Shown piece after piece: positions 36,630 to 58,436 of a stretch of 64,000 bases of DNA. The DNA is taken from NCBI GenBank assembly GCA_041630155.1, contig JBFKLX010000003.1:1915-65914 (forward strand). Direction: 5' to 3'. This stretch comes from Acidobacteriota bacterium (lineage in GTDB: Bacteria; Acidobacteriota; UBA6911; RPQK01; JANQFM01). Every line of letters begins with the position of its first letter. The first letter of the stretch is position 1. The position numbers were made by a program, and so were the translations under genes. The notes under the pieces were generated by a model that saw nothing but the letters and a program-made list of their open reading frames with translations, did no database searches and was not told the DNA's origin.

Positions 36630-36830
36630 TGGATCGCGTGTCGGAATCTGGTGCGGTGAGGAAGCCGTGGCGTTGAGCATGACGGCGCCTGGAGCCGCGA
36701 GGGGCGCGGACACGTGAAGGCTGAGAATGGGCAGCTGGGTTCCCTCAGCCAATTGCAGAAGGCGGGTGAGTGTGGTCTCCTCGCATTGAGGTTGGGGCAA
36801 GCCGTGATCGAGACTCTCGAAAAGTACTGG

Positions 36831-38261
36831 ATGGTTCACCTCCTGCTTGTGGCTTACACGATTCTGTTGGCCTATCATGCCTGGGCCGGCGGACGGCAGA
36901 CTCGGGGTCTGGCAGACTATTACATCGGAGGCCGCAGGATGGGGGGGCTCGCCATCGGACTCTCCTTCTTCGCGACCTACTCGAGCACCAACAGTTTCGT
37001 CGGTTTCTCGGGACAGAGCTACGCCTGGGGAGCAGCCTGGCTCTGGCTCGTCCCATTCATCGTCGGATTCACCCTCTTGTCCTGGCTGCTCGTCGCGCCG
37101 CGCCTCCGCCTCCTCACCGAATCACTGGACTCACTGACGATCCCCGATTTCATCGGTTTCCGCTTCCGCAGCACGGCGTCACGGTTGGCGGCAGCGGTGA
37201 TCGTCCTCTTCGCCAGCCTCTTCTACATGACGGCCGTTTTCAAAGGCATCGGGAATCTCCTGGAAGCCTTCCTCGAAATCCCATACGAGAGCTCCATTCT
37301 GCTCGTCTTCCTGATCGTGATGCTGTACACGGCAGTGGGTGGATTCATTTCGGTCGTGAAAACGGACACCGTCCAGGGAGTGGTCATGATCGCGGCGGCC
37401 GTGCTGCTGTTCGCCGGCGCCACTCGCGCGGCCGGCGGAGTCGAGACGCTCTTCATGAATCCCGATCCCTCGGCCGGTCCGGAGTTCTCTCCGGGGGATG
37501 GAGGAATCGCCTTTCCCCTTCTGTTGGGAGTGCTTTTTTCGGCGACGGTCAAGACCCTCGTCGAACCTCGGCAGCTCTCTCGATTCTACGCCCTGAACAC
37601 GCCCTCGGACATTCGCGTGGGAATCTGGGTTTCCGGTCTCAGCTTCGCCCTGGTCTATACGCTCTTGACGCCGATCGGACTCTACGCGCGCCGAATCCTC
37701 CCGCCCGGAATCAGTGAAAGTGACCTGGTGGTGCCGACCTTGCTGCGCACCGAAGGGGTCTTCTCGGACGGCGCCAGCGCTTTTCTGCTGCTGGCCATGG
37801 TGGCGGCGGCGATGTCCTCGTTGGACAGCGTCCTTCTGGTGATGGCTTCCACGGCCGAGCGCGACGTGATGGGGGTCTTCAGACGGCGTCCGCTCAGTGA
37901 AGGCGCATCGGTGCGCAGCACCCGGCTCTACGTGGTGCTGTTCGCTTTTCTCACCATGCTGATGGCCCTCCGTCCACCCGGGGGCATCGTGACATTGACG
38001 GCCCTCTCGGGAGCAGTCTATGCGACCTGTTTCTGCCCCGCCCTTCTCCTGGGGCTCTACTGGCGGCGGGGCAACGGAGCCGCGGTCATGAGTTCATTCG
38101 CGGCCGGGCTTCTGGTGCTCTTTTCCTGGAGACTGACTCCCCTTGGCAACACGATTCATGAGGTCTTTCCGGCGGTCCTGCTGTCGTTGCTGGTCTTCGT
38201 GGCCGTCGCGGTCGTCACGCCGCCCAGGATGAGTCACGACGCGGTCGCTCATTTCGAGTGA
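36831..38261 (+). CDS. Sodium:solute symporter family transporter
   Basis: 13 TM SSS core; ATG at 36831. Confidence 0.75.
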   Translation: MVHLLLVAYTILLAYHAWAGGRQTRGLADYYIGGRRMGGLAIGLSFFATYSSTNSFVGFSGQSYAWGAAWLWLVPFIVGFTLLSWLLVAPRLRLLTESLDSLTIPDFIGFRFRSTASRLAAAVIVLFASLFYMTAVFKGIGNLLEAFLEIPYESSILLVFLIVMLYTAVGGFISVVKTDTVQGVVMIAAAVLLFAGATRAAGGVETLFMNPDPSAGPEFSPGDGGIAFPLLLGVLFSATVKTLVEPRQLSRFYALNTPSDIRVGIWVSGLSFALVYTLLTPIGLYARRILPPGISESDLVVPTLLRTEGVFSDGASAFLLLAMVAAAMSSLDSVLLVMASTAERDVMGVFRRRPLSEGASVRSTRLYVVLFAFLTMLMALRPPGGIVTLTALSGAVYATCFCPALLLGLYWRRGNGAAVMSSFAAGLLVLFSWRLTPLGNTIHEVFPAVLLSLLVFVAVAVVTPPRMSHDAVAHFE

Positions 38262-38449
38262 GACGTAGCTCGCCCTGCGGCGACTCCCGGAGCGGATTTT
38301 TGCCCGGTCGTGTCGCCTCAGGGCCCGGGGCATCTGACTGCGCCGCTGGGGCATTCGGCCCGGAAGGGAGAACCTGATGTCCGGAACAGCGCATTGGCCG
38401 ACGCTCTAGGTTATCGGCGGGTACTGCGTCCCCCACTCTTGCCATTCTC

Positions 38450-38465
38450 TGGCACATCCCTTGCT
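38450..38465 (+). promoter_or_regulatory. Sigma-54 (-24/-12) promoter consensus TGGCACatcccTTGCT
   Basis: Exact GG-N10-GC spacing; ~180 nt upstream of the giant-protein ATG. Confidence 0.55.
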
Positions 38466-38645
38466 CGCAATAGCGGCAAATTCACGTTCTTTGCCCGCCT
38501 GACCTCGGGAAGAGGGGCCATGAGCCAATCCGCCAGCCTGTGTTCCGGACCAACCGAAGGGCCATTGGCTCGTCTCTGGCTTCACCCTCGGATGCCGTTC
38601 TCGGGGTGCCTGCGAGCAGCATCGAGAAACAGTCGGGAGACCGCC

Positions 38646-41600
38646 ATGGCCGAGCCGAGATTCAAGTTCAATTCTAGCCAAATCGTGCTTCTGCTGGGAT
38701 TCTGGGTTGCCCTTGCAGGCGTTGCCGAGCCGGCCCTCGCGGGCACGTACTCCAATGGGGTTTACGAGGAACAGTACTTCGGCGGCCAGGCGACACTGCG
38801 GTTCGAGTTCCGGGCCGATGAAGCCATCCCGATCTCGATCCGGGAGGTAGTCGAAAACTACGGCGGGTACGTTTATCCCTACACTTACTTTCTGATTCAT
38901 CACGAATTGCGTGCGAGCATCATCACCTACTCCGTCTCGGGGTCTGCCCAGGTGACCTTGACCCGTTCCAGCGAACAATTCGACTGGAGTTCCCGAAGGC
39001 TGATCTCCGCCAATCCCTTCCGCATGCAGGTCAACACGTATTACCGTTTCCAGCTGCGCGCCAGTGGGCAGCCGGACGTGTACGCGTACTTCACCCTGGA
39101 GCAGACGCAAGCCCCGCCCAATGTCGAGATGGAAGTCTCGGCCACTCCCTGGCTGGATCTGGAGGAGCCGACTCGGGCCTTGATTCCCGCCGACCGGCGA
39201 TTCCCGGCGAAGTTCAAGATCAGCCTGGTGGATGCCGACAGCTACCCCAAAGAGCCGTTCACCGAGCCCCAATCCGTATTCGTGACCCTCGCGGACAGCG
39301 AGAGGGGAACGCTGGAGTCATTGCAGACGTCGGCATCGGGCCGGCAAATCACTTTGACCACCGACGACAAAGGTGAAGCGGAGTTCCAATACGTGTATCT
39401 GGGAAACGCCCCCCAAAGCCAGCCTTTGCAGGAGTCGATTGCGATCGAATGTCCCGCGCTCGGCCTGGAGGAGTCTGCCAGCGTGTCCATCGGATTGAAA
39501 CCGGAAATCCTGGAGGTGGTCAAGCGCTGGGATAGCAGAACCCAGTTGCCCCGAACGATGGGGCTTCGGGTCCAGGTGCGAGACGAGTTCTGGCCCGATC
39601 TGGACTACCTGGAATACAATCGGCGGCTGAGTCTTGCCGACCCGGAAGGCGAGACGCTGGGTGTCTTCCTGACCACCACCTGGCTCAACCCCCCCGATGA
39701 GGAAGGGCACATCGCCGATTTCCTGGAGTACCTGCAGATGGGCTTCGCCTTGAGCGATGAGGACGAATTCTACGACGGGCGGGGGTACGTCGAGATACTC
39801 AAGGGCAGATACCTGTTCAAGGCTATCGACAGCCCCGCGGTGACCCTGGAAATGCGTTTTCCGGCGCACGTCTTCGTCCGCCCGGGGACACGCTGGTTGA
39901 CGGCTCAACTCGAGCTGATCGTGGCGCCCGAGGAAGTCGCCAGTCCGCTCGAAAAGATCTTCGGCACCCAGAGCAATACGATCATCTACGCGGTCGACGT
40001 GATGCGTGGGGGGGAAAGTGTCCTGCAGTCGATTGCCTGTTCGTTTCAGCCGACGACCTCGGCTCAATACTGGGTGAAGTACACGCTCAATCACGACTAT
40101 TTCAAGCATGCCTTGGAGGTCGGCGGGGGCGCCGGATACATCGTGAGCATGCGAACGGTGCAGTTGTTCGACCTGACCTGTGAATACCTGCAGGGCAACT
40201 ACTTCAACGTCATGCAAGCCCTCGTCGGGGAATACCTCAGCAACCTGGACGCCCTTCGTGAGTCGGGGGAGCTCGAGTTGAGTGCAGGGGAGGCGCGGCA
40301 GCTGGCTCGCTACCTCACTGTCAGTGAAGGCAAGGACATGTACGACGTCCTGAATTTCACGGCCGACGAAATACTGGGGAATCAGGACTCACGGTTTTCG
40401 AGCTGGCCGCCGCGGGGACGGCGATTCACCCGGCCCAGCGAGTCGCTACCGGAAATCCCTCCCGGCGTGGACCTGGCCGAGTTGAGGCAAATCTTCAACG
40501 AGTCGCTCCTGGGGTTGCTGGCGGGGATGGGTGAGGAGGGACTCGAGATCATCGCCGTCTCCAATGGAACCGTTCAACTGCTCAGTCCCGACTCGAGTCC
40601 CTACCCGGAGGAGTCGATTCTCGCTGCCGTCGAGAGCGAGGGGAGCAAGATCTACCTCCTCCCGGAGAACACGGCGCTTCTGGCCGTGGAGCACTCGGGA
40701 GCGCTTCAGATCAATCGTTTTCTGTACGGCCCGGGCGCGACCATGGAGACCGCCTGGTACTCGGTGGGAGACCCGCAGGCACCGGCCACCAGCAGCCTGG
40801 ATTGTTCTCAGGGCCTGAATGCGCAGCTTCTGGTCGACGCGGGGTCCAACGGCTCGGTCGATGAGACCTTGGCTCCCGCCACCACTTCCTACACCCCCTC
40901 TCCGGACGATCTGGACGGGGTGGCGGCAGTCGTGGAGGACCAGGGCCCCAACGGCGGAGATGCCAACCGTGACGGTCTCTTGGACAGCACTCAGCCGAAC
41001 GTGGCTTCGTTGCCCAACGCGGTCGATTCCCGGTATGTGACGCTGGTCTCGCCCGCAGGGACTCGTCTCCGCGGCGTACAGGCCTTGGAGCAGATCGAGG
41101 CCGATCCCGCTCCCGAAGGCGTCAGCTTCCCGCTCGGGCTGTTCGAATTTCACGTCGAAGGGTTGGAAACCGGAGGGTCGACCACCGTTGAGATGCTCCT
41201 GCCCGAGGGAGTGCAAGTCAACTCGTACTACATTCGCGGGTCGACGACCGGGGAAGGCACGGACCACTGGTACGCCTTTCCCTACGACCAGGAAACCGGT
41301 TCGGAACTGGAAGAAGACCTGGTTCGGCTGCATTTTCGAGATGCCGGCAGAGGCGACAGCTACCCATTTCCGGACGGAGTGATCATCGAGCCTGGCGGAC
41401 CGGCTTTCGTGATCCGAGAGGATCGCCTGAACTTCGCCCAGTTCGCCACCGGCGGAGGGCTCTTCAGTGAAGTGGTCCTGTTGAATCTGGATGCGGAAAC
41501 CGAGGCGGACGTGGAGGTCTACTTTCGGGACGACGACGGCCAGCCTCTGAGCTACCAAGCCGGCAGCAGGGAGGTGCCTGGATTCATGCACCTTTCGATT

Positions 41601-42743
41601 CCGGCTGCGGGAATGAGAGTGTTTCAAACCGACGGAGGAGGAGTTGGAGTGGCAGGATCGGCCGATGTTCGTTCCAGCCGTCCGCTGGCCGGAGTCTTGA
41701 TCTTCGGCGGTGCTTTCGGCTTGGCAGGTGTCGGCGACAGCCAGGATTTGACGGTATTCTCAGCACCCATGGAGAAAACCGATTCCCGTGGAATCAACAC
41801 CGGGATCGCTGTGATGAACGCAGCCGACGCGCCCACCGACCTCGACCTGCGTCTCCGTGGCGCCGACGGAGAGGAGCTGGCAACCGCCTCGGAAAACCTT
41901 CCGGGGAGGGGACACAAAGCGGTTTTTGTCGACCAGTTCGACTGGAGTCCGCCGGTCGACTTCAGCGACTTTCGGGGAGTCCTGGAGGCGAGCAGCAGCG
42001 GACCCATCGGAGTCACGGTCCTGCAGACCAGGCCGGGGCAGTTCGCCACCATGCCGGTGGCCCCGCCGCCGGGTGGCAGCGGATCGGCCTCTCCCGACCT
42101 GAATTTTGCTCAATTCGCCACCGGTGGAGGGCTGTCCAGTGAGATCATCCTTCTGAATCTGGACGCCGGAACCGAAGCCCAGGCGGAGGTGCATTTTCGG
42201 GACGACGTGGGGAATCCCTCGAGCTTCGAGCTGGACGGCGCCAGCGTCGACGGCCAGCTGCAGCTCTCGATTCCGGCGTCGGGGGTGAGGGTCCTCCAGA
42301 CGGACGGGAGCGGCCCGCCGGTCTCGGGCTCGGCCCGGGTCAGCTCCGATGCGCCACTGGCTGGGGTGCTGGTCTTCGGCGGCAGCTTCGGTCTCGCCGG
42401 TGTCGGGAGCAGCCAGGAGCTGACGGGTTTTCTGGCTCCGATGGAAAGGATCGCGTCCGCCGGCATCAATACGGGAATCGCAGTCATGAATGGGGACGAC
42501 TCACCGGTGAATCTGGACCTGCGGCTGCTGGACGTGGACGGCCGGGAACTGGCGACGGCCAATGAGACGATTCCCGCTCGAGGACACAAAGCGGTCTTCG
42601 TCAACCAGTTCGACTGGAGCCCGGCGATGGCTCTCGCGGACTTTCGCGGAATCATGGAAGTCACCAGCAGTGGGCGAATCGCCGTCACGGTCCTGCAAAT
42701 CCGCCCCGGCCAGTATGCGACGATGCCGGTGGGGAGCAGGTGA
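38646..42743 (+). CDS. Giant secreted protein (1,366 aa): novel N-terminal region, a Ca-binding D-x-N-x-D-G loop + beta-sandwich domain ending ...RGDSYPFPDGVIIEPGGPA, then a tandemly duplicated two-domain C-terminal module
   Basis: Signal peptide MAEPRFKFNSSQIVLLLGFWVALAGVAEPALA. Internal repeats LNFAQFATGGGL...(x2) and GINTGIAVMN...GHKAVFV.QFDWSP...(x2). Confidence 0.7.
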   Translation: MAEPRFKFNSSQIVLLLGFWVALAGVAEPALAGTYSNGVYEEQYFGGQATLRFEFRADEAIPISIREVVENYGGYVYPYTYFLIHHELRASIITYSVSGSAQVTLTRSSEQFDWSSRRLISANPFRMQVNTYYRFQLRASGQPDVYAYFTLEQTQAPPNVEMEVSATPWLDLEEPTRALIPADRRFPAKFKISLVDADSYPKEPFTEPQSVFVTLADSERGTLESLQTSASGRQITLTTDDKGEAEFQYVYLGNAPQSQPLQESIAIECPALGLEESASVSIGLKPEILEVVKRWDSRTQLPRTMGLRVQVRDEFWPDLDYLEYNRRLSLADPEGETLGVFLTTTWLNPPDEEGHIADFLEYLQMGFALSDEDEFYDGRGYVEILKGRYLFKAIDSPAVTLEMRFPAHVFVRPGTRWLTAQLELIVAPEEVASPLEKIFGTQSNTIIYAVDVMRGGESVLQSIACSFQPTTSAQYWVKYTLNHDYFKHALEVGGGAGYIVSMRTVQLFDLTCEYLQGNYFNVMQALVGEYLSNLDALRESGELELSAGEARQLARYLTVSEGKDMYDVLNFTADEILGNQDSRFSSWPPRGRRFTRPSESLPEIPPGVDLAELRQIFNESLLGLLAGMGEEGLEIIAVSNGTVQLLSPDSSPYPEESILAAVESEGSKIYLLPENTALLAVEHSGALQINRFLYGPGATMETAWYSVGDPQAPATSSLDCSQGLNAQLLVDAGSNGSVDETLAPATTSYTPSPDDLDGVAAVVEDQGPNGGDANRDGLLDSTQPNVASLPNAVDSRYVTLVSPAGTRLRGVQALEQIEADPAPEGVSFPLGLFEFHVEGLETGGSTTVEMLLPEGVQVNSYYIRGSTTGEGTDHWYAFPYDQETGSELEEDLVRLHFRDAGRGDSYPFPDGVIIEPGGPAFVIREDRLNFAQFATGGGLFSEVVLLNLDAETEADVEVYFRDDDGQPLSYQAGSREVPGFMHLSIPAAGMRVFQTDGGGVGVAGSADVRSSRPLAGVLIFGGAFGLAGVGDSQDLTVFSAPMEKTDSRGINTGIAVMNAADAPTDLDLRLRGADGEELATASENLPGRGHKAVFVDQFDWSPPVDFSDFRGVLEASSSGPIGVTVLQTRPGQFATMPVAPPPGGSGSASPDLNFAQFATGGGLSSEIILLNLDAGTEAQAEVHFRDDVGNPSSFELDGASVDGQLQLSIPASGVRVLQTDGSGPPVSGSARVSSDAPLAGVLVFGGSFGLAGVGSSQELTGFLAPMERIASAGINTGIAVMNGDDSPVNLDLRLLDVDGRELATANETIPARGHKAVFVNQFDWSPAMALADFRGIMEVTSSGRIAVTVLQIRPGQYATMPVGSR

Positions 42744-42776
42744 ACACTGGCTCAACCGGACTCAGACAAGACCCTG

Positions 42777-42797
42777 AAGATCCTGTAATCCTGTCCA
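42777..42797 (-). repeat. Intergenic repeat element (copy C, inverted orientation): revcomp = GGACAGGATTACAGGATCTTC
   Basis: 21/21 identity to the copy B core. Confidence 0.55.
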
Positions 42798-42891
42798 GGC
42801 TCTCCGGAAACGGGCAGGTTGGTTTGACTGTGCCTTCCCCCAAAACCCCTGCTGGATTCCCGTTTGGACCCGGGCCAGCTACACTAACGCC

Positions 42892-45225
42892 ATGACAGCG
42901 AAGTTGCCTCCGCTCCCCAAATTCCTGGGGGCCCGTGTGCCCCGCAGGGAAGATCCCGATTTGATCACGGGCCGGGCCCGTTTCGTGGCCGACATTGCAG
43001 TGGACGAGCCGCTGCATCTGGCTTTCTGGCGCAGCCCGCAGGCGCACGCGCGGATCGCGGGAATCGACCGCCGCCAGGCCCTGGACTTGCCGGGAGTGGT
43101 GGCCGTCCTGGCCGCCGACGAACTGAATCCCTTGGTCAGAAAACCATTTCCCACGCTCAGTGGAGCCATGTCGGGAGCTTACGAGAGTCTCACGATTCCC
43201 AAGCGATTCCCCCTGGCCCAGCAGTACGTCCGGTTCGCGGGGGAGGCCGTGGCGCTGGTCCTGGCTGAGGACCCGGCCATCGCGCTGGATGCGGTGGAAT
43301 TGATCCAGGTGGAGCTGCAGCCCTTGCCGGTGCTCACCGAACCCGCTCAGGCGCTCCGGGACGACGCTCCTGTGCTGCACGAAGGCATGGACGACAATCT
43401 GAGCTTCGTCTGGAAGGCTCAAAACGGCGACGTGGACGAAATCTTCGAGAGCGCGGAGGTGGCAATCGATTTGGAAGCCCGAGTCCAGCGGCTCGTCCCG
43501 ACCGCGATGGAACCTCGGGCGGTTTTGGCTTCGTTCGACCCCGAACGAGAAACCTTCACTGTCTGGTCCACGACCCAGATTCCTCACCAGGTGCGAGACG
43601 ATCTGGCCCAGATGTTGGACCTGCCGCCGGCGCGAATCAGAGTCATCGCTCCGGATGTCGGGGGAGGCTTCGGCGCCAAGGCCAACGTCTATCCGGAAGA
43701 GGTGCTGGCCCCTCTGCTGGCGCGCAAGTTCCAGCGGCCGGTGCGCTGGGTGGCCGGTCGCAGCGAAGATGCTCTTGCGACCTCTCAGGGGCGGGACCAG
43801 CGGAACCTGATTCGCCTGGCGGCTGACCGTGACGGTAGGGTCAGGGCAGCGGAACTCACCGTGCAGGCTGACTGCGGGGCCTATCTCACCCGCGTCACCG
43901 CCGCCGTCACGCCCTTCACCGGCATGATGGTGACCGGCGTCTACGACATCCCCAGCGTCCGGGCCGAAGCCATGGGAGTGCTGACCAACCGATCGCCGGT
44001 CGAACCCTACCGCGGGGCGGGCAGGCCCGAGGCTGCCTACATGATCGAACGCGCCATGGACGTGCTGGCTCACCGTCTCGATCTGGACCCTGCAGAAGTT
44101 CGCCGCCGCAACTTCGTCCCGCCACAACGATTCCCCTACCGCAACGCCCTGGGACTGGAATACGACAGCGGCGACTACGCCAGGACGCTCGACAAGGCCC
44201 TCGAATTGGTGGACTATGGCGCCCTGCGCCGGGAGCAGGAAGGACGCCGCCAAAGCGGCTCCGCGAGGCTGCTGGGAATCGGGTTGGCCTGTTACGTGGA
44301 AATCTGCGGCTTCGGCCCCTGGGAAGCCGGCGGCGTAAAGGTCGAGCCCGATGGGCAGGTCACCGTCCTCAGCGGTACCTCGCCTCACGGCCAGGGACAC
44401 CAGACCAGCTGGGCCCAGATCGCGGCGGAGGTGCTGCAGGTGCCTCTGGAACGCATCACGGTCAAGCACGGCGATACGGCCATCGTTCCCGCCGGCATCG
44501 GTACCTTCGGCAGCCGCAGCGCTCCGGTGGGAGGTTCCGCCGTCTTCCGGTCGTCCGAATCCGTGCAGCGCGGAGCCAAGGCCATCGCAGCCCATCTGCT
44601 GGAAGCGTCCCCGGAAGACCTCCGGCTCCAGGAGGGCAGATTCTTCGTGGTGGGGGCTCCTCAATTCAGCGTGGGCTGGAACGAGGTGGTCGCCGCCGCG
44701 CATTCGAACGACCTGCCCGAGGAACTGCGGGGAACACTCGAAGCAGAGACCCGCTACGAGCCGGAGGGGGAGACGTATCCGTTCGGCACCCACGTCTGTG
44801 TCGTCGAGGTGGATCGTGACACGGGCGGCGTCGAGATCTTGCGCTACCTGAGCGTGGACGACTGTGGACGGGTCATCAATCCCCTGATCGTGGAGGGCCA
44901 GGTGCAAGGAGGAGCCGCGCAGGGAATCGGACAGGCCCTCTGGGAAGAGGCCCGCTACGACGAAGTCGGGAATTTGTTGACGGCGAATCTGACCGAGTAC
45001 GCCCTGGCCCGAGCCGATTCACTGCCGGCCCTGGAGTCTCACCGCACGGAAACGCCCAGCCCCTTGAACCCGCTGGGTGTCAAAGGTATCGGGGAGGCGG
45101 CCACGATCGGCTCCACCCCGGCGGTGGTCAACGCCGTGATGGACGCGCTGGCCCACCTGGGCGTCACACACATCGACACCCCCCTCACGCCTGCCAGGAT
45201 CTGGCGCGCGCTCTCGCGCGGGTGA
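42892..45225 (+). CDS. Xanthine dehydrogenase/CO dehydrogenase family molybdopterin-binding large subunit (orphan: no adjacent FAD or 2Fe-2S subunits)
   Basis: N-terminal VPRREDPDLITGRARFVADI and AFWRSPQAHARI motifs; 777 aa. Confidence 0.8.
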   Translation: MTAKLPPLPKFLGARVPRREDPDLITGRARFVADIAVDEPLHLAFWRSPQAHARIAGIDRRQALDLPGVVAVLAADELNPLVRKPFPTLSGAMSGAYESLTIPKRFPLAQQYVRFAGEAVALVLAEDPAIALDAVELIQVELQPLPVLTEPAQALRDDAPVLHEGMDDNLSFVWKAQNGDVDEIFESAEVAIDLEARVQRLVPTAMEPRAVLASFDPERETFTVWSTTQIPHQVRDDLAQMLDLPPARIRVIAPDVGGGFGAKANVYPEEVLAPLLARKFQRPVRWVAGRSEDALATSQGRDQRNLIRLAADRDGRVRAAELTVQADCGAYLTRVTAAVTPFTGMMVTGVYDIPSVRAEAMGVLTNRSPVEPYRGAGRPEAAYMIERAMDVLAHRLDLDPAEVRRRNFVPPQRFPYRNALGLEYDSGDYARTLDKALELVDYGALRREQEGRRQSGSARLLGIGLACYVEICGFGPWEAGGVKVEPDGQVTVLSGTSPHGQGHQTSWAQIAAEVLQVPLERITVKHGDTAIVPAGIGTFGSRSAPVGGSAVFRSSESVQRGAKAIAAHLLEASPEDLRLQEGRFFVVGAPQFSVGWNEVVAAAHSNDLPEELRGTLEAETRYEPEGETYPFGTHVCVVEVDRDTGGVEILRYLSVDDCGRVINPLIVEGQVQGGAAQGIGQALWEEARYDEVGNLLTANLTEYALARADSLPALESHRTETPSPLNPLGVKGIGEAATIGSTPAVVNAVMDALAHLGVTHIDTPLTPARIWRALSRG

Positions 45226-45387: not shown

Positions 45388-45822
45388 TCAGCGACCCATT
45401 TTTTCGATTGCGCCGGACAGCTCCATCATCTCTCCGAAGCTGACCGTTTCGACCTTGTTGAGCCGCTCCCGGAAGTCGGCGACCAACTCCGTGGAAAACA
45501 CCCTCCACTGCTCCGGGTTGACCGGGTAGATATGCCCTTCGAAGTGCAGATGTGCAGCCCGTATGCCGCCGGGAAAGGGTCGCGGCCATCGGATCGCGGC
45601 GGCACTCGCCTCGGTAGTCCCTCCTCCCGATAACTGCCCGACGATCGGTACCGGATCATCCCGGTAGAGATGGTCAGGGTTGATGCGCTGCAGTTGATGC
45701 TCTTTGATGAACGCACCAATGAACTCCCGCCTCGTGACCCAAATGTCGGCCGGCAGGCCCCAGATCCAACGCCAATGCCACCAGGCCACGCGCGGCCGGA
45801 TCAACTCGTATACTCCATCCAT
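45388..45822 (-). CDS. Hypothetical 144-aa protein, co-directional and immediately downstream of the radical SAM/SPASM gene
   Basis: No recognisable motifs; Trp-rich N-terminus. Confidence 0.4.
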   Translation of the reverse strand: MDGVYELIRPRVAWWHWRWIWGLPADIWVTRREFIGAFIKEHQLQRINPDHLYRDDPVPIVGQLSGGGTTEASAAAIRWPRPFPGGIRAAHLHFEGHIYPVNPEQWRVFSTELVADFRERLNKVETVSFGEMMELSGAIEKMGR

Positions 45823-45874
45823 AATTGCCTCCTATGCGGGTGGCGTTGCAGTTCGAGCGGTCAATGGTCGCCCG

Positions 45875-47011
45875 TCACAGGCTCTTTGCCTGGGGGCTCA
45901 GCAGACTGTTCACCAACGGCGCGCCACCCAGATGTTCAAAAAAGGTCGCACCTACTTTCTTCTCGAGGATCTGAAAAGCGTCGAAGGCTGCGCCAATGGC
46001 GGCTTTCTCCGAAGCACACAGGAAGGGGCCTACCCGGTTGTAGTACCCGGTCGAAAAATAGTTCGAGCAGCCGCACCAGTTCATGCAGTAGTCTCGCAAG
46101 CCGCAACTCGAGCACTCAGAATTGACGGATTCGCCCGCGGCCGTGTGGCAAAGCATCTTCCGGGGCTTGATCCCCTCGTGAACGTTGCCGATGCAGTGCC
46201 CGTTGGCTCCGTCACCGACGAGCCGCTCGCAGGGGTAGATGTCTCCGTTGGGTGTGAACGCGAATTCCCCGCGGCCCATACGGCAGCGCTCGAGCGGATC
46301 ATAGCCCTTGCGGAGGATCACGCTGATCTTGCTGTCGATGGGGCTGATGAAGTGGGGATCCTGGCGCAGGTAGTAGTCTACGTAAAGCTTCCCGATGGCA
46401 CCAAAGACCTGTGGAAGCGAGGCGACTTCGGCCGGTGTCCAGCGGGCGCTGAAATCGGGGTTGAGGTAAATCTGCCTCACGCCGAGTGAAGAAAAATACT
46501 CCACGGTGCGAGGCAGCTGGGCCAGGTTTTTGGGGCCGTAGACCGCGTTGACCATGACGGCCGAAAAAGCCTCCAGAGCCTCCCGAATCGTTCTCTCGAC
46601 GCGATCAGCGGTGCCGCGTCCGGAATGGAAGCGGCGAAACATGTTCTGGACGTCGGGTGGTCCGTCGCAGCTGATCCCGAAGCCCATGTCGTGCCGGGTA
46701 ACGAAGTCGGCGATTTCCGGTGAGAAGATGGTACCGTTCGTGACAATCGTGAGCTGCACGCGAGTCTCGTCGAAACGAGGGTGGCTCTCGATCAGCTTCG
46801 TGATTTCCTTGACGAGGTCGAACTCCAGGAGCGGTTCGCCTCCAAAGAAACCGACCTCCATCTTTTCGCTGAGCGGAGTGTGCCGGTACATGAACTCGAC
46901 TACGTCTCTTGCGACCGAGCGCGTCATGCGCGCCTTACGCTGACCGATGTAACAGTACCGGCAGGCCAGATTGCAGGATTGTGTCACCAGCAGAGTGTGT
47001 TTCATTCCCAT
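45875..47011 (-). CDS. Radical SAM enzyme with C-terminal SPASM domain, anaerobic sulfatase-maturating enzyme (anSME)-like
   Basis: CNLACRYC (Cx3Cx2C); anSME-like ISCDGPPDVQNMFRRFHSGRGTADRV; C-terminal Cys cluster CIGNV...CHTAAG...CSSCGLRDYCMNWCGC. Track ORF starts at GTG 47053; ATG MGMKHT at 47011. Confidence 0.8.
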   Translation of the reverse strand: MGMKHTLLVTQSCNLACRYCYIGQRKARMTRSVARDVVEFMYRHTPLSEKMEVGFFGGEPLLEFDLVKEITKLIESHPRFDETRVQLTIVTNGTIFSPEIADFVTRHDMGFGISCDGPPDVQNMFRRFHSGRGTADRVERTIREALEAFSAVMVNAVYGPKNLAQLPRTVEYFSSLGVRQIYLNPDFSARWTPAEVASLPQVFGAIGKLYVDYYLRQDPHFISPIDSKISVILRKGYDPLERCRMGRGEFAFTPNGDIYPCERLVGDGANGHCIGNVHEGIKPRKMLCHTAAGESVNSECSSCGLRDYCMNWCGCSNYFSTGYYNRVGPFLCASEKAAIGAAFDAFQILEKKVGATFFEHLGGAPLVNSLLSPQAKSL

Positions 47012-47489
47012 CCACAAACGGACTCGCGACTGCTCGCCGCGGGATGATCGCACCCCAATCGAAGACGATCAGGGGTGAGCGAAATTGCCCGACCCACTCG
47101 GTCCGCCTTCCGAGTCGTCAGGGTGAGCAGGCACAAGAGGGCGACCAGTCACCGGGTCTCCGACGAGTTCCCACATTGAGAAAACTCAATTCTGTTTCGT
47201 GTGACTACTAATGGCGCAGTTGGACTAATGAGTCAATAGCCATCTCTGAAGTGAATTGACACAAAAGTCAAAACAAGTCGGCATTGGGACAGCGGGCGGG
47301 GGTGACCGCCGGAAGGGTGTGTCCAAGGTTGGCTGAGTACGGACTGGTGGAAGGGGTCTTTCCCCGGCGGTACGAGCTCTCCACGTCCCGCCAAGGAGCC
47401 TGACGAAACGCCGAGGGTCTTCGACCCGCATCCGTCGCGTCGCCGTGCGACCCTTCGGCCTGTCTGCGGAAGTGCCCGTCGAGGGCGGC

Positions 47490-49961
47490 TTAGGGTGTTG
47501 TGGTGGGCTCAGGATCGGCAACGATCTGCGGAACCAGTGTGAGATTGCGGGTGATCGTCTGGCTGAAAGCGGCCACGGCCACCGGGCGGGAAGCTCGGAC
47601 GACCAACGAACGGGCAGGAGTTCTGGGATGCACGGGGAACCACCGGGGCAGGCGAGCTTCGAGTCGCTCGCGGGGGCCCAGTGTCGCTTTTCGGACGATC
47701 AGGGTATAGTTGCGACCTCTGTCCAGCTCCAGTTCGACCTGGGCACTCTCTTCGGACGAATTCAGGATGTAAAGGAACAAATCCGCTGCGCTTTCGGGTC
47801 GCAGCTCGAATTGGAACTGGGAGGCGAAGCGGGCCGCCGGAAACAAGACACTTCCTCGACCTGCCCCTTCCGTTTTCACGAACCCGGTCAGGGCTTCATC
47901 AGCGTTGACCTCGAGCCACCCGGTCCGACTGGCCCCTTCCCAGCTGGCAGGCCAGGAACGCACCTCGAGCGGTGCAAGCCGAAACATTATTTCGGTCGGA
48001 CTCGCCCCTGCCAGGAGCGGCATCTCAGCCTCGCTTCCATCGGTTCCGCCCAAACGCAGCGTTCCCTGCGCAGTCTCCAGCCCAGGATTGAACAGGACCA
48101 GACGGGTGTCCCAGCCCGGACGCGCTTGGAAGTACGGAAAAACGAGGTGGGTCTGGCGAGCCGCCAATCCCGCCAGCGGCACCTCTGCCGCACCCCACGG
48201 CCCCAGGAAGAGCAGGTGCGCGCTCACCGGGGAATCCGACCGCAGCCCGAGCCATCCCAGATCAGCAGGCCCGCCTCCCGGCAACCCGGTCGCGTCGTTG
48301 GCCGGCCAGAGCAGGCGGCCGGGGGGAAGGGTGATCGTTTCGCGTCCTCCTTTCGATTCACTCCAGCGGGAGCCGCGAATCTCCAAGATAGTAGTTGATT
48401 CGCTGGAATTCTCGAACAGCAAACGAGAACTGGTCTTGTCTCGTTCGGTAACAGGGAAGGAGGCCTCTTGGACCGGCTCGTCGTCCAAGACGGCCTGTTC
48501 CTTCATCCCGGCGAAGGCTACCTCCAGGAAGGCGGGATTCGAAGAGTCCGGTGGAAGATTCGTCTCGAACTTCCCGTTCCGGTAGAGCAAATGATAGCTG
48601 GATTTGGAGTCGGACGAATTGCGGCGCAGATAATCGTTCCAGTGGGGATAGACCTGCAGGCGGGAGGAGCCATAGGCGAGCCTGAGCAGGAATACTTGAT
48701 GATAGCGAGGGATGGGGGAGTTTTCGATCACCAGGACCGCATCCGGTGGAAGATCCGGATGCCTCTCGAACAGTGCAGTTGCAAACCCCCGCCACAGCTT
48801 GCCCCGGTAGAGAAAACTCCGCCGGCCGCGGTCGAAAGCGTCCCAATGCCAGGTGGCCAAGAGGACCAGAAGGACGCCGAAGGCTCCCAACTGGAGCCCC
48901 CGCCTGTCTCTGAACCGCTCTGTGGAAACGAGGCGAACCCCTTGCAGCAGGAGGGCAGCCAGGTAGAGGGCAAGGCCGAGAGCGGGGATGTAGAGAAAGA
49001 GTCCCCAAACACGAGGAAGCGGAAGCACCGGCGCCAGGACGAGCAGGAACCAGGCCAGGCCGAAAATCATGTGCCGGTTGCGCAGCATCAAAGCCAGGAG
49101 GGCGGCCATGGCGAGTCCGATCGACGCGCCGAGAGCCGAGAGTTCGAACCAGCCACCAGCCAGCTGTTCCAAATATTGAGCGAGGTTGTGAGGAATTGTC
49201 GCGTCGAGGTGGTAACGGTACAGAGGGTTTGTTGTGAAGCGGGTTGTTGGACCCCAGATTTTGCCCACGGCGTCGATCAGAGAGATCAGGAAGAAGGGGG
49301 ATAGCCGGACGGCGGATGCCGCCAGCACCCGCCTTTTCGGAGAGCAGTAGAGCAGCTGATAGAGCAGCAGGATCGCCGGCAGGAGAGCCGCAATTTCCTT
49401 GGCGCCGAGGGCCATCCCGAAACTGAGAAAAGAGAGAATGTAGGCCTTTTTCCGCCCACCCTCGAGATAGTTGAGGTAGAAGTGGAAACTGGCGCACATC
49501 AAACCCAGCGCCAGGGTCTCGTAAACCGCACCAAAGTTGTACCAGACGGTCACGTAGGCGGGGTGAATCGCCGCCAGCGCAACCGCGGTGGCAGCCAGGA
49601 AGCGCTGCTTCGTGATGCGCAGCAACAGGGTGAAAGCCAACACCAGATTGAGACTCGTCAGGATCAAGCCCGTCAGGTAGTAGGCCAGTGGATTCACCCC
49701 GAAGAGATCGTAGAGGATCACGTAGACGAGCCCGCCCACAGGGCGCTTGTAGTCCACCCAGAAATGAAGGTTGGCGAGCAGCGCGTCCTGCCAAGGCCTG
49801 AAGACGTAGTAGTGCAGGTTGCTGACGTCGTCGCCGGAAAGGTAAGCGCCCAGCATGGGGAGGACGAACGGCACTGAATAGAGGAGGATCAGAGCAAGCA
49901 GCAACGCCGAAAACCAGGAAGTTCGAAGACGAGAGTCCGGAGTTCGGCGGCGATCGTCCAT
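47490..49961 (-). CDS. Large polytopic membrane protein (PMT/ArnT/YfhO-like glycosyltransferase-type topology, family uncertain) with a C-terminal soluble module homologous to the giant-protein repeat module
   Basis: ~12 TM helices then LVFPYFQARPGWDTRLVLFNPGL... and FLYILNSSEESAQVELEL... segments resembling the 38646-42743 repeats; start MDDRRR at 49961. Confidence 0.55.
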   Translation of the reverse strand: MDDRRRTPDSRLRTSWFSALLLALILLYSVPFVLPMLGAYLSGDDVSNLHYYVFRPWQDALLANLHFWVDYKRPVGGLVYVILYDLFGVNPLAYYLTGLILTSLNLVLAFTLLLRITKQRFLAATAVALAAIHPAYVTVWYNFGAVYETLALGLMCASFHFYLNYLEGGRKKAYILSFLSFGMALGAKEIAALLPAILLLYQLLYCSPKRRVLAASAVRLSPFFLISLIDAVGKIWGPTTRFTTNPLYRYHLDATIPHNLAQYLEQLAGGWFELSALGASIGLAMAALLALMLRNRHMIFGLAWFLLVLAPVLPLPRVWGLFLYIPALGLALYLAALLLQGVRLVSTERFRDRRGLQLGAFGVLLVLLATWHWDAFDRGRRSFLYRGKLWRGFATALFERHPDLPPDAVLVIENSPIPRYHQVFLLRLAYGSSRLQVYPHWNDYLRRNSSDSKSSYHLLYRNGKFETNLPPDSSNPAFLEVAFAGMKEQAVLDDEPVQEASFPVTERDKTSSRLLFENSSESTTILEIRGSRWSESKGGRETITLPPGRLLWPANDATGLPGGGPADLGWLGLRSDSPVSAHLLFLGPWGAAEVPLAGLAARQTHLVFPYFQARPGWDTRLVLFNPGLETAQGTLRLGGTDGSEAEMPLLAGASPTEIMFRLAPLEVRSWPASWEGASRTGWLEVNADEALTGFVKTEGAGRGSVLFPAARFASQFQFELRPESAADLFLYILNSSEESAQVELELDRGRNYTLIVRKATLGPRERLEARLPRWFPVHPRTPARSLVVRASRPVAVAAFSQTITRNLTLVPQIVADPEPTTTP

Positions 49962-50097
49962 GTCGGAGCATTGTACATTTGAGCCCCGGGAGAGGCGACC
50001 AGTCCCCGGCCCGAACAGTTTCGCCCCAGCCTCTGGGCGCCCGGCCCACTCTCCAGCTGCCGGTTGCAGAGGATTGTCTTGGGGGAGTGCTGTCCGG

Positions 50098-50769
50098 TCA
50101 CCAGGGCGGTGAGATGATCGCATCTACCGGGGGCGCCGGATAGTACTGCATCGTTCGCTTGACCTTGCGCGCCATGTCGGGCGATGCAAAGCGCGCGACG
50201 AAATGCAGCGACATGTCGATGCCGGCGCTGATGCCCGCGGAGCTCAGGCATTTGCCATCATCCACGAAGCGGTCGTCGCCGCGAACGTCGATGTCGGTGC
50301 CCAGCCCCGCCAGCAGATCGAGACATTTGAAGTGCGTCGTGGCGCCCCGACCGTCGAAGACTCCGTAGGCGGCGTAAACGAGGGCCCCCACGCACACGCT
50401 GACCGGCATGGCGCCCGAGTCGAAGGCAGCCTCGAGCATCGCTTCGATGTCCGGTCGCAGACCTTTGTCGTAGTTGCAATCCACGAAGTGGGACTCCATG
50501 TTCTGCCCACCCAGGTAGAAAAGGGCATCCAGCGGCAGGACGTTGTCGGGCCAGATTTTGTCCGGGATGAGCTTCATTCCCTTGGCGCCCACGACGTGGT
50601 CGCGGCCGCCCGGCAAGGGAAGGGAGAAGGTGAAGAGGTCCACCTGGCGCTCTTCCGTTGAGCCCTTGGCCAGGAAGCGCCACCAGCCGAGAACCTCCAG
50701 GGGGCCGACCACATCCATCTCGTCGACGCGATCGAAAACGAAGATCCCGATGCGGAAGGGATTGGCCAT
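50098..50769 (-). CDS. DJ-1/PfpI family protein
   Basis: MANPFRIGIFVFDRVDEMDVVGPLEVL; nucleophile-elbow Cys in SVCVGALVY. Confidence 0.7.
   Translation of the reverse strand: MANPFRIGIFVFDRVDEMDVVGPLEVLGWWRFLAKGSTEERQVDLFTFSLPLPGGRDHVVGAKGMKLIPDKIWPDNVLPLDALFYLGGQNMESHFVDCNYDKGLRPDIEAMLEAAFDSGAMPVSVCVGALVYAAYGVFDGRGATTHFKCLDLLAGLGTDIDVRGDDRFVDDGKCLSSAGISAGIDMSLHFVARFASPDMARKVKRTMQYYPAPPVDAIISPPW

Positions 50770-51484: not shown

Positions 51485-51485
<1 letters not shown>
51180..51485 (-). CDS. Cytochrome c oxidase subunit IV (caa3-type small subunit)
   Basis: 101 aa, 3 TM, last gene of the cox operon; start overlaps the coxC stop. Confidence 0.6.
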
Positions 51486-53827
<2,342 letters not shown>

Positions 53828-53831
<4 letters not shown>

Positions 53832-54802
53832 GGGTTGCTCACGGTCCTTTCCGGGGCGGTCGGCGCCTGGCTGGACGCCTGCAAAGACTTGACATAGGCA
53901 ATGATCTGCAACAGGCCGGTCTCATTGATTTGCCCTTGAAAGGTGGGCATGATCTGGGAGTATCCGGCTACCATCTTGGCGCCTGGATTGAGTATCGACT
54001 CACGAATGTAGGCTTCGTCCGCCAGGACGGTCTGTCCGCCCTGCAGCCGCACCGGCTGGCCCCACAACTGGGCCAGATCGGGGCCGCGAGCGCCCGAGGT
54101 CTCGTTGTGACAGGTGTTGCAGCGCAATTGTTCGAACAGCTTTCGGCCCGACACTTCCAGGGGTTCGCCGGCGCCGGCGCCGCTCAGCCAGCTCTCGTAG
54201 TCGACCGGGTCCATGACCGTCACCCAGCCGATCATTTGCGAATGTTTGGTGCCGCAGTACTCGGTGCAGAACAGGTGGTAGCGGCCCGGCCTGGTGGCCT
54301 CGAACCAGGCGCTGGTCTAGCGTCCCGGCAAGACGTCCATCTTGATGCGAAACGCCGGGATGAAGAAGCTGTGAATGGTGTCTTCGGAGGTCATGGTCAA
54401 GCGCACGGGCTGTCCCACGGGCACGTGCAGGGAGTTGATCTCCCGCTGGCCGCTGGGGTGCTGAATCTTCCACATCCACTGCTTGGCCACCACCAGCATG
54501 TCCAGCGTGTCCGAAGGCGCCCGGTTCATCTTGTAGTAGAGCGACGTCCCCCAGACGAAGATCCCCATGGCGATGACGAAGGGAATGATCGTCCAGGTCA
54601 GCTCCAGCTTGAGCGAACCGACCAGGGGCCTCGGCACTTCGAGCTCGGACTTGCGCCGGTAGCGGATGGCGAAGTACGTCACCAGCGAAAAGATCAGGAC
54701 CGAGAAGAAGAGGCTGACCGCGATCAGGAAAAAGTAGAGGGTGTCGACCTCTCCCGCGATCGTCGAAGCCTGTTCGGGAAACAAGAACGAATCAGACCAC
54801 AT
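53828..54802 (-). pseudogene. coxB: Cytochrome c oxidase subunit II with C-terminal cytochrome c domain (caa3-type), interrupted by one in-frame TAG (plus-strand 54317-54319)
   Basis: Same frame on both sides of the TAG: ...[42 protein letters not shown]... (intact CuA site H-C-E-C-H-M) and CNTCHNE haem motif downstream. Confidence 0.8.
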
Positions 54803-54825
54803 AAGCGTTGAACCCGTATCCTTTG

Positions 54826-55686
54826 TTAGCGGTGCGCAACTCCCCGTCCTGCGGTCACTTCTTTGGCGCGCTCGGCGCGCAGGAACCAGATCATCATGCC
54901 GACCACTCCCAGCAGCGTGAGCAGTGCGGCGATCCGGAGCACGTTCATGATCACCAGGCTGTAGCGGCCCAAAGCGGGATCGTAGCGGAAACAGTACAGC
55001 AGCACCTGGTCCACCGGCGTTCCGATTCTGCCTGAAGCCGCCTCCACCAGGGTCAGCCGCAAATCACGAGGCGAGTACTCGACGCCGAAGAAGTAGCGGG
55101 CGACCTTTCCCTCGGGCGTGAGGACCTGAATGGCGCTGGCGTGGCTGTACAGGTCCGTCTCGGGCTCGTAACGGTAGCGGAAGCCCACCGCGTCGGCCAG
55201 GGCCTGGATAGATGCCTCGGGGCCGGTCAGGAAGTGCCAGCCGGCGGCGCCCTCCGGCCGGCCGTACCCTTTGACGTACACCCCCTTCTTGTCATTCGCC
55301 ATCTGCGCCGTCTCTCCGGGGTCGATACTGACGGTCACGATCCGGTACTCCTCGCCCAGATCGAACTGGAGGGGGCGGATCGCGCGCAGCACTCCGTTGA
55401 GGATTTCCGTGCAGAGCATGGGGCACTCGTAATAGGCGAGGACCAGGACGACCGGCTGCCGGCCGAAGTAGTCGCCCAGCCGGACGGTCCGCCCCTGCTC
55501 GTCGGTGAATTCGGCATCCAGAGGTACCTGGGCGCCCAGCTTCTGGTCGATTCCCACGTTCTGCAGGCCGGGCGGCCGCTGGTCGGCGTTCAAGACTTGG
55601 CCGTGTGCTCCGGACATCAGCGGGCCGAACGCCAGCACCACGGCCGGTGCGGCCAGCCGAAACCAGTTTTGCTTCACTCTTCTCAT
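54826..55686 (-). CDS. SCO1/SenC family copper chaperone (thioredoxin fold, CxxxC), membrane-anchored
   Basis: CPMLC motif; N-terminal signal/anchor from MRRVKQN; C-terminal TM. Confidence 0.75.
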   Translation of the reverse strand: MRRVKQNWFRLAAPAVVLAFGPLMSGAHGQVLNADQRPPGLQNVGIDQKLGAQVPLDAEFTDEQGRTVRLGDYFGRQPVVLVLAYYECPMLCTEILNGVLRAIRPLQFDLGEEYRIVTVSIDPGETAQMANDKKGVYVKGYGRPEGAAGWHFLTGPEASIQALADAVGFRYRYEPETDLYSHASAIQVLTPEGKVARYFFGVEYSPRDLRLTLVEAASGRIGTPVDQVLLYCFRYDPALGRYSLVIMNVLRIAALLTLLGVVGMMIWFLRAERAKEVTAGRGVAHR

Positions 55687-55721
55687 CCGACTCACGTACC
55701 TTCCTCGATGGGCCAGTCCGT

Positions 55722-56072: not shown

Positions 56073-56124
56073 CTGGACATCGGTTTGTTCGTGTTTGGGA
56101 GGTGCAGGCTTCCCCGGCGTCGGG

Positions 56125-58423: not shown

Positions 58424-58436
58424 GCCTCGTCACTCC

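Follow-up and report, generated by a model that had tools for sequence, protein, structure and literature searches.

A large, putatively exported Acidobacteriota protein ending in a tetrad of ASRT/TM1070-like β-sandwich domains

Choice-of-anchor domains owe their name to the sorting signal that normally comes after them, which can be any of several kinds, and in one such family, choice-of-anchor U (NCBIfam NF041766), the protein usually terminates in a short signal of this sort, for example PEP-CTERM or a related tail. A different kind of module is the ~100-residue ASRT/TM1070 domain (ASRAH; PDB 1NC7, 2II7; de Souza, Iyer and Aravind 2009), for whose superfamily sugar binding was predicted (PMC2739507). 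TM1070 and ASRT are homotetramers, the ASRT binding cleft is completed at the dimer interface, and secreted versions were noted in 2009 only as dyads or tetrads (PMC2739507). At that time, the domain was described as a stand-alone protein of the cytoplasm, as a fusion to amidases in Chloroflexi and as part of actinobacterial lipoproteins (PMC2739507). Here, we describe a gene of an uncultured Acidobacteriota bacterium, located in a window of 64 kb (the whole stretch of DNA analysed), whose product carries a choice-of-anchor U domain and, behind it, a tail that is a tetrad of the ASRT/TM1070 fold.

Gene and domain layout

The coding sequence (38646..42743, + strand; 1,365 codons plus stop) is predicted to yield a large, acidic, putatively exported protein. 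GC3 is coding-like along its entire length, an NCBI MAG carries an annotated protein that is 99% identical (P0001), and an Acidobacteriota MAG encodes an orthologue of 50% identity (P0002). An earlier note on this DNA had described a giant secreted protein of 1,366 residues; the description stands and the anatomy given was accurate, with the length to be corrected to 1,365. The ATG at 38646 is preceded, 6 nt upstream, by GGGAG (38635-38639). The in-frame extension further upstream (38310-38645) does not look coding, because its GC by codon position (0.67/0.61/0.63 in 38310-38519 and 0.57/0.69/0.64 in 38520-38645) differs from that within the gene (0.64/0.46/0.77). The upstream neighbour, a sodium:solute symporter gene on the same strand, stops at 38261, leaving a gap of 384 nt to the ATG.

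Residues 1-32 (38646..38741, +) form a predicted Sec-type signal peptide, MAEPRFKFNSSQ-IVLLLGFWVALAGVA-EPALA, with cleavage predicted between ALA and the following G, a site conserved in P0002. Inspection and a hydropathy window revealed a basic n-region, a hydrophobic h-region (core 2.77 on the Kyte-Doolittle scale) and the AxA motif of SPase I substrates. The passenger region of ~735 residues that follows (residues 33-769; 38742..40952, +) is an orphan: it has no Pfam, NCBIfam or PDB sequence match—in agreement with the earlier statement that nothing in the N-terminal part could be placed—and among 5.8 billion proteins searched, one other species has a relative, P0002, its sole real homologue. 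Neither HExxH nor GDSL nor any comparable catalytic motif was found in this region, and its AlphaFold model (β-rich, then helical over residues ~485-625, then β again) is unusable at a pLDDT of 31.6. Together, homologue, PDB and model searches give no clue to the function of the passenger. A small domain within it (residues 63-154, VENYGGYVYPY...QFDWSS...; 38832..39107, +) recurs at the C-terminus of P0198, an unrelated DUF4214 protein (BLASTP, 42% identity over 104 residues, E 7e-6).

Behind the passenger lies the loop GGDANRDGLLD (residues 770-780; 40953..40985, +), with its D-x-N-x-D-G motif at residue 772 and the counterpart DCNQDGIPD in P0002; it precedes a β-sandwich, as had been noted, and judging from the motif it may bind calcium. 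The β-sandwich (residues 823-920; 41112..41405, +) matches NF041766 at E 8e-16 and 58.7 bits (cut-off 32; profile positions 2-91 of 92) and bears the family signature ...GDxxPxPDGxIxxPGGPA, here RGDSYPFPDG at residue 902. The signature previously described as seen in some surface proteins is therefore present, the vaguer label giving way to a defined family, NCBIfam choice-of-anchor U. Unlike the usual members of that family, however, this protein continues after the domain with a cassette of 440 residues.

The cassette consists of a 217-residue module that occurs twice with a period of 224 residues, the copies being 67% identical over 211 residues without gaps (E 5e-101), with LNFAQFATGGG at residues 928 and 1152 and GINTGIAVMN at 1049 and 1273. 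Module 1 spans residues 925-1141 (41418..42068, +; sub-domain A 41418-41753, B 41754-42068), and module 2 spans residues 1149-1365 (42090..42740, +; A 42090-42425, B 42426-42740) and ends at the C-terminus. The duplication had been claimed before and is borne out, as is the division of the module into two sub-domains; these are, however, no unrelated pair, but mutually homologous (hhalign E 2.8e-5), diverged and distinct types that alternate in the order A-B-A-B. Since A is homologous to B and each is an ASRT/TM1070-like β-sandwich, the tail is a tetrad of one known fold. Whole-protein NCBIfam and Pfam scans returned choice_anch_U only, known sorting-signal models (type IX C-terminal domain, PEP-CTERM, LPXTG and the like) remained without a match, and the C-terminus (...RPGQYATMPVGSR) lacks a terminal hydrophobic helix.

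An ASRT-like cassette shared by many secreted proteins

How closely does the cassette resemble ASRT and TM1070? The structure model (pLDDT 96.3, pTM 0.89) shows the eight-stranded β-sandwich with ASRT/TM1070 topology, and Foldseek retrieved both ASRT and TM1070 at a probability of 1.00. As far as the model goes, the connection is by fold alone, no sequence-level link having been found: Pfam gave no match to the tail at E<=1, DUF1362 included, and a 43-sequence profile searched against PDB sequences recovered neither 1NC7 nor 2II7 at E<=10. That the repeat belongs to a well-characterised family of known function, which the earlier note had said would speak against its reading, is true only by half: the fold family is a known one, whereas the function of that family is predicted only.

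With ASRT/TM1070, the cassette shares the domain size of ~100 residues, the tetrad of the secreted versions and the asparagine at the end of strand 2, with strand positions taken from the structure model. This residue closes ...VVLLN in A (N23) and ...IAVMN in B (N134); N134 is kept in 90% or more of 43 sequences, and neither asparagine varies in a six-sequence alignment. A predicted role in sugar binding is likewise common to the two. Unlike in ASRT, other residues take the place of the His and Cys ligands, and the first strands carry Phe (F6/F9, F114) instead of the Trp that in ASRT follows a polar residue at the start of strand 1. A 'GW' does occur in distant relatives, namely P0004 (GAGWTSQIVLTN) and the PMT_2 protein of the window (RPGWDTRLVLFN), as read from the sequences. 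The latter, a membrane glycosyltransferase that carries a related domain, is encoded 4.7 kb away. Also in contrast to the contexts described in 2009, it is the extreme C-terminus of Acidobacteriota passengers of great diversity that carries the cassette.

The duplication is not confined to this protein: the same pair ends the members of a large Acidobacteriota secreted family. An exhaustive search yielded 3,143 cluster representatives at E<=1e-3, of which 338 remain when E<=1e-30 is required, and all 77 of the 77 genome loci recovered belong to Acidobacteriota MAGs, with up to seven loci per genome. Two modules, that is four domains, are present in 139 of 197 retrieved members, and in 126 of the 140 best representatives (~90%) the module lies no more than 10 residues from the C-terminus, mostly as a tandem pair; in most members, 0-2 residues follow the conserved ending ...RPGQ[FY]ATxPV. 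Repeats at the same position in different proteins are usually mutual best matches (127/214), indicating that both modules are inherited together. A crude test detected a signal-peptide-like N-terminus in 57 of 91 full-length-like members. In the 45 members surveyed, the regions before the cassette hold very diverse extracellular domains, among them SBBP and BNR/sortilin propellers, DUF11, LRR, LamG, cohesin, GH5 cellulase, cadherin-like, FG-GAP and NosD domains; apart from the protein described here, 4 of 45 members have choice-of-anchor U directly before the cassette, and choice-of-anchor U or L is found in 5 of 45. Some proteins consist of a signal peptide and the cassette alone (P0013, P0017, P0160). 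Single- and double-dyad members both exist, with most short single-dyad entries resembling truncated gene calls, and no conserved neighbouring gene was seen at the family loci. In all, the cassette is an unnamed, very common four-domain tail, terminal throughout the family and variable in its partners.

What might such a tail do?

We envisage a Sec-exported multi-domain protein with a glycan-binding or surface-retention cassette of the ASRT type, an explanation to which, taken as a whole, we would give an even chance; by analogy, glycan binding or surface retention is the most likely role of the cassette itself. A lineage-restricted passenger is followed by the Ca-loop and choice-of-anchor U and then by the four β-sandwiches, a ready-made tail carried by many different secreted passengers of Acidobacteriota. 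Each A-B pair would pack as a rigid dyad, and the two dyads would probably assemble into an intrachain pseudo-tetramer, in analogy to the TM1070 and ASRT homotetramers. Most likely, the cassette would bind a carbohydrate, be it a glycan of the environment or the envelope or exopolysaccharide of its own cell, and such binding would keep the passenger on the cell surface or attached to a substrate. The sugar-binding analogy draws on the prediction for the superfamily (PMC2739507), on the retained asparagines (N23, N134) and on the PMT_2-linked related domain, but the loss of the ASRT His/Cys ligand residues and the apparent absence of the strand-1 Trp would seem to weaken it.

A β-sandwich tail can just as well act in secretion or in assembly. 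In a first alternative, the cassette could be a C-terminal sorting or secretion domain that is recognised by an outer-membrane export or attachment machinery of Acidobacteriota, in the manner of the type IX secretion C-terminal domain or PEP-CTERM, and perhaps removed afterwards. While its strictly terminal position, the extreme diversity of its passengers, its placement behind choice-of-anchor domains and the apparent limitation to a single phylum whose genomes carry many copies would all fit a sorting role, ~440 residues in four folded domains would be very large for a signal, no NCBIfam or Pfam sorting-signal model matched, no conserved machinery gene adjoins the family loci, the closest relatives by fold are predicted to bind small molecules, and a protein made of signal peptide and cassette alone would make little sense if the cassette were purely a signal; we deem this reading unlikely. 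Similarly doubtful is the notion of an address tag, built from ASRT-fold domains, of an unrecognised Acidobacteriota-specific display or sorting system—a functional analogue of the type IX secretion C-terminal domain or of PEP-CTERM/exosortase. Like the cassette, the type IX domain is a β-sandwich that, in a single phylum, forms the very C-terminus of many secreted passengers unrelated to each other, but it is a single domain of ~80-100 residues in Bacteroidota, whereas the cassette comprises four domains of another fold family, has no NCBIfam or Pfam match to such domains and is seen without associated machinery. If true, each genome would have many secreted enzymes, propellers, adhesin-like and LRR proteins that rely on the tag to get to the cell surface or its polysaccharide coat, or to be fixed there. 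Assembly, in turn, would mean that the cassette associates with itself and, via intermolecular dyad-dyad contacts, builds up a surface layer or matrix of protein instead of binding glycans. The homotetrameric state of TM1070 and ASRT (PMC2739507) and the many paralogues per genome are compatible with this, and intermolecular contacts are conceivable given that single- and double-dyad members exist. Two dyads per chain can, however, satisfy a tetramer within a single molecule, and the likely truncation of most short single-dyad entries speaks against it as well, making this the least probable of the readings considered.

A sigma-54-type element upstream of the gene

The consensus of sigma-54 (RpoN) promoters is YTGGCACGrNNNTTGCW, and the bacterial enhancer-binding proteins (bEBPs) need not be encoded near their promoters. 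On the + strand at 38450-38465, the sequence TGGCACATCCCTTGCT reads directly as TGGCAC-ATCCC-TTGCT, a sigma-54-type -24/-12 element that is intergenic, correctly oriented and located exactly 180 nt before the ATG, just as the earlier note had proposed (~180 nt). GG at -24, GC at -12 and the spacing between them conform to sigma-54 promoters. Transcription would be expected to start near 38476, and if the element is used, a putative leader of 170 nt (38476..38645, +) would result, which contains the ribosome-binding site GGGAG and lacks a coding-like codon-position GC. No Rfam match was obtained in this putative leader, and its fold is no more stable than that of shuffled sequence (z -0.2). What sets the locus apart from sigma-54 promoters is this rather long leader, the loss of the -12 element in an orthologue, and a window without an activator gene or recognisable enhancer: consistent with the reported absence of a bEBP, the motifs GAFTGA, ESELFGH and GExGxGK are missing from all six frames of the 64-kb window, and Sigma54_activat had no match in four Pfam batches covering 40 ORFs of the window.

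We suggest that the gene is transcribed from its own promoter, with sigma-54 and a distant enhancer-binding activator as the leading candidate because of the exact -24/-12 match; use of the element by sigma-54 is plausible but unproven. That the match is due to chance, and that expression instead depends on a housekeeping-type promoter that went unrecognised or on transcription reading through from the symporter gene, is a serious alternative of only slightly less than even probability. The exact match TGGCAC-N5-TTGC occurs once in the 64 kb on both strands, at 38450-38465, but shuffled windows contain 0.19 on average and 18 of 100 contain at least one, and with one mismatch allowed there is no enrichment in the window (6 versus 4.1 expected). 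Across the family, one of 79 loci has an exact match, with no enrichment upstream of other family genes. In the sole independent orthologue compared (L001, the same as L006), conservation of the whole element was not found: TGGCAC-AGAGA-TACAC keeps the -24 part but has TACA at the TTGC position, and hence no GC at -12. The absence of a bEBP within 64 kb and the long, unstructured putative leader would likewise suit a chance match, and read-through would be favoured by the same-strand symporter gene and by a gap to the ATG in which no intrinsic terminator was found. Against chance, the shuffling figure covers the whole window and both strands, and a match in this very gap and orientation would by our estimate be some ten or more times less likely; moreover, no sigma-70-like site was found in 38000-43200, and bEBP genes may lie far from their targets. 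Finally, the 5.6-kb orthologue locus, for which 2.65 copies of TGGCAC are expected, contains a single one, and this falls inside the equivalent 180-nt upstream gap, where we estimate that ~0.04 would be expected.

The cassette and its family

The large exported protein encoded at 38646-42743 (+) ends in two 217-residue modules (residues 925-1141 and 1149-1365) that align without gaps at 67% identity, each module consisting of sub-domains A and B. The earlier note had read this tail as a tandem duplication of a two-domain unit; both copies are indeed present, but they form a cassette that is found family-wide and not a local duplication. When looked for elsewhere, as the note had proposed, the module proved widespread: 1.84 billion cluster representatives, searched exhaustively with a profile, yielded 3,143 matches at E 1e-3, 1,511 at E 1e-10 and 338 at E 1e-30. 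Nearly all of the best matches contain two matched stretches, two module copies are present in 139 of 197 retrieved proteins, and in 126 of the 140 best representatives the module ends at most 10 residues, usually 0-2, from the C-terminus. The regions 5′ of the cassette are mutually unrelated across family members and include SBBP and BNR/sortilin propellers, DUF11, LRR, LamG, cohesin, GH5 cellulase, cadherin-like repeats, FG-GAP, NosD, astacin protease and a multicopper-oxidase domain, with choice-of-anchor U or L among the partners in 5 of 45 members. Signal-peptide-like N-termini were scored, by a crude test, in 57 of 91 full-length-looking members. The cassette represents a large, unnamed family, apparently centred on Acidobacteriota and located nearly always at the end of secreted proteins.

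A pattern-seeded genome scan (one genome per species, 6-sequence alignment) recovered 77 loci, all in Acidobacteriota MAGs and up to seven per genome; since pattern seeding favours close relatives, this does not show that the cassette is missing in other phyla. An operon partner for cassette genes was rejected. The one conserved neighbour cluster (28 loci) consisted of antisense shadow ORFs over module genes, and the next-largest cluster covered only 8 of the 77 loci. Stand-alone cassette proteins were dropped as an argument because the majority of short entries resemble truncated gene calls; just three relatives (P0013, P0017 and P0160) appear to be genuine combinations of signal peptide and cassette.

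Acidobacteriota are among the most abundant bacteria of soils and sediments, yet the ways in which they retain extracellular proteins or display them are poorly understood. The cassette occurs in more than 3,000 sequence clusters, and for it we found neither a Pfam or NCBIfam model in the libraries searched nor a description in the literature searched. Its position at the end of secreted proteins with diverse heads points to a common anchoring or sorting of the phylum's exoproteome. The pieces of the present protein and its promoter region are of known kinds (signal peptide, choice-of-anchor U, ASRT fold, sigma-54 consensus), the head is an orphan, and the main interest lies with the cassette family, little of it with the regulation of this gene.

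Fold, history and possible role of the cassette

The AlphaFold model of the module, built from a 43-sequence alignment (pLDDT 96.3, pTM 0.89), predicts an all-beta structure of two sandwiches in fixed relative orientation. A Foldseek comparison of the repeat unit, also proposed in the note, retrieved ASRT and TM1070 chains (PDB 1NC7, 2II7) at probability 1.00, and at the sequence level no ASRT link was found. Halves A and B are themselves related in profile-profile comparison (E 2.8e-5 over 72 columns), and the tail therefore consists of four copies of one ancestral domain. The domains of the ASRT superfamily are probably sugar binders whose cleft is completed by a dimer interface, a near-invariant Asn ends their strand 2, and secreted versions "always occur either as dyads or as tetrads" (PMC2739507, 2009). 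The cassette shares the Asn at the end of strand 2 (...LLN and ...VMN) and obeys the dyad/tetrad rule; it represents a different, much larger and Acidobacteriota-centred branch, distinguished by alternating A/B types and a strictly terminal position. Its conserved residues include His166, Trp176 and an NTG motif. It thereby extends a superfamily whose function is only predicted.

How old is the tandem arrangement? Same-position repeats of different proteins are usually mutually best matches (127 of 214), and the pair is therefore old and inherited as a unit. The identity between the two modules is unusually high here (67%, vs a family median of 48%), and reaches 62% in the astacin protein P0003, which suggests later homogenisation, through gene conversion or re-duplication inside some family genes.

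The protein carries an export signal, and its tail is an ASRT-fold tetrad common to many secreted proteins with interchangeable heads. We propose that the two dyads would associate within one chain into a pseudo-tetramer, that this assembly may bind carbohydrate, and that binding could retain the head on the cell envelope, on exopolysaccharide or on substrate. The main rival is a role of the cassette in sorting, as a signal read by an as yet unrecognised machinery for export or attachment. Its strictly terminal location and its apparent restriction to one phylum would favour this, yet such a signal would be unusually large and no machinery is linked to it. Retention by carbohydrate binding, in turn, is consistent with sugars being the predicted ligand class of the fold family, with cassettes that follow choice-of-anchor domains, with the few proteins made of signal peptide and cassette alone, and with a PMT_2-type membrane glycosyltransferase, encoded 4.7 kb away, that carries a distantly related copy of the domain. 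The fold link turns carbohydrate binding by a single-chain pseudo-tetramer into a testable idea.

The coding region and the orphan head

Although the open frame runs from 38310 in the ORF list, we assign the start to ATG 38646 because GGGAG precedes it by 6 nt, the signal peptide starts immediately, the NCBI annotation and the orthologue share this start, and codon-position GC differs between the upstream stretch (0.57/0.69/0.64) and the gene (0.64/0.46/0.77). Codon-position GC also ruled against starting translation earlier, at 38520, a choice that would give a shorter leader. Translation yields 1,365 residues, not the 1,366 reported before, and the previously noted signal peptide, of the Sec type, was recognised by inspection at residues 1-32, with predicted cleavage between ALA and G. 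Antisense ORFs of 142-393 residues cover the whole gene (38406-42688, -); these are not genes but the shadow ORFs that GC-rich DNA typically produces.

The N-terminal ~900 residues had been described as devoid of placeable motifs, and for the head (residues 33-769) searches of Pfam, NCBIfam and PDB sequences were indeed empty, nor was a catalytic motif recognised. Among 5.8 billion proteins, the near-identical P0001 matches the entire protein, and only the orthologue P0002, from an Acidobacteriota MAG, is otherwise related along the full head (45% identity). A small domain at residues 63-154 (38832-39107, +; motif VENYGGYVYPY...QFDWSS...YYR...YF.LE) has a counterpart, at 42% identity, in the last 100 residues of P0198 (an otherwise unrelated DUF4214 protein, JGI metagenome), and looks like a rare mobile domain without a family model. 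Structure prediction, which the note had put forward for the N-terminal region, failed: the AlphaFold model of residues 34-925, from a 3-sequence alignment, was unusable (pLDDT 31.6). We can only say that the head is acidic, that it is beta-rich apart from a helical stretch in its middle, and that it is restricted to a single small lineage. It is followed by the Ca-binding-like loop recognised earlier, D-x-N-x-D-G at residues 770-780, and what had been called a surface-protein signature is the named NCBIfam family choice-of-anchor U (residues 823-920, well above cut-off).

The orthologue was recovered twice with the same upstream DNA, at loci L001 (2149-5600) and L006 (3235-6649), in MAGs JARRKB and JARRKC of one study. 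In L006 a stop at residue 962 interrupts the reading, and the module goes on in another frame, probably owing to an assembly or frameshift error.

Upstream region and neighbouring genes

The sequence cTGGCACATCCCTTGCTc (38449-38466, +) contains the -24/-12 element placed by the earlier note at 38450-38465, about 180 nt upstream of the gene. It is the only match to TGGCAC-N5-TTGC on either strand of the 64-kb window, compared with a mean of 0.19 per window, and at least one match in 18 of 100, in dinucleotide-preserving shuffles of the window. One-mismatch sites number 6 against 4.1 expected, and sigma-54-like sites are therefore not generally enriched. A gap of 384 nt, in which a simple scan found no intrinsic terminator, separates a sodium:solute symporter gene (36714-38261) from ATG 38646; the element is located there, faces the ATG and stops 180 nt short of it.

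Does the element work as a sigma-54 promoter? We consider this a little better than an even bet. In its favour, the element matches exactly and is well placed, a simple scan found no sigma-70-like alternative in 38000-43200, and the orthologue locus has a single TGGCAC in 5.6 kb, located in the equivalent 180-nt gap (chance expectation ~0.04, estimated from 2.65 per locus). However, the orthologue carries TACA in place of TTGC at the -12 position, only 1 of 79 family loci has a matching element, and the window, as stated before, encodes no enhancer-binding protein. Use of the site would also imply a 170-nt leader without an Rfam match or unusual structure; a riboswitch or structured leader was rejected, folding stability not being in excess. 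L006 was discarded as a second test of promoter conservation, its upstream DNA being identical to that of L001. If real, sigma-54 control of this gene would be ordinary biology. Elsewhere in the window, GGGCACGGAGATTGC (16105-16119, +), with one mismatch and both the GG and GC doublets kept, lies ~140 nt 5′ of a Na+/Ca2+ exchanger gene (16260-17204) and could be a second such promoter.

The PMT_2-type glycosyltransferase (877 residues; 47490-50123, -) ends in ~350 residues of beta-sandwich repeats matching the cassette profile. A six-frame search of the window aligned its residues 654-753 with module positions 48-148 (domain E 3.6e-5), and both the Trp and the Asn that mark the ASRT signature occur in its motif RPGWDTRLVLFN; fusion of a glycosyltransferase to an ASRT-like fold fits a sugar-related role. 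A GT-C-type membrane glycosyltransferase also lies within a few kb of the orthologue (YfhO, L001 1-465). Shared context was rejected, YfhO and PMT_2 not being homologous; gene order around them is not conserved, and their proximity may be coincidence. Further along, a respiratory cluster (51485-63036, -) contains an alternative-complex-III-like pair (molybdopterin/4Fe-4S protein of 1,077 residues; NrfD-type membrane subunit), after which come SCO1/SenC, cytochrome c oxidase subunits II, I and III and a c-type cytochrome, consistent with an aerobic Acidobacteriota genome. Finally, within 45388-47053 (-), a radical SAM enzyme (392 residues, with Fer4_12) precedes a co-oriented 144-residue ORF without a family match, and the two could form a peptide-maturation pair.
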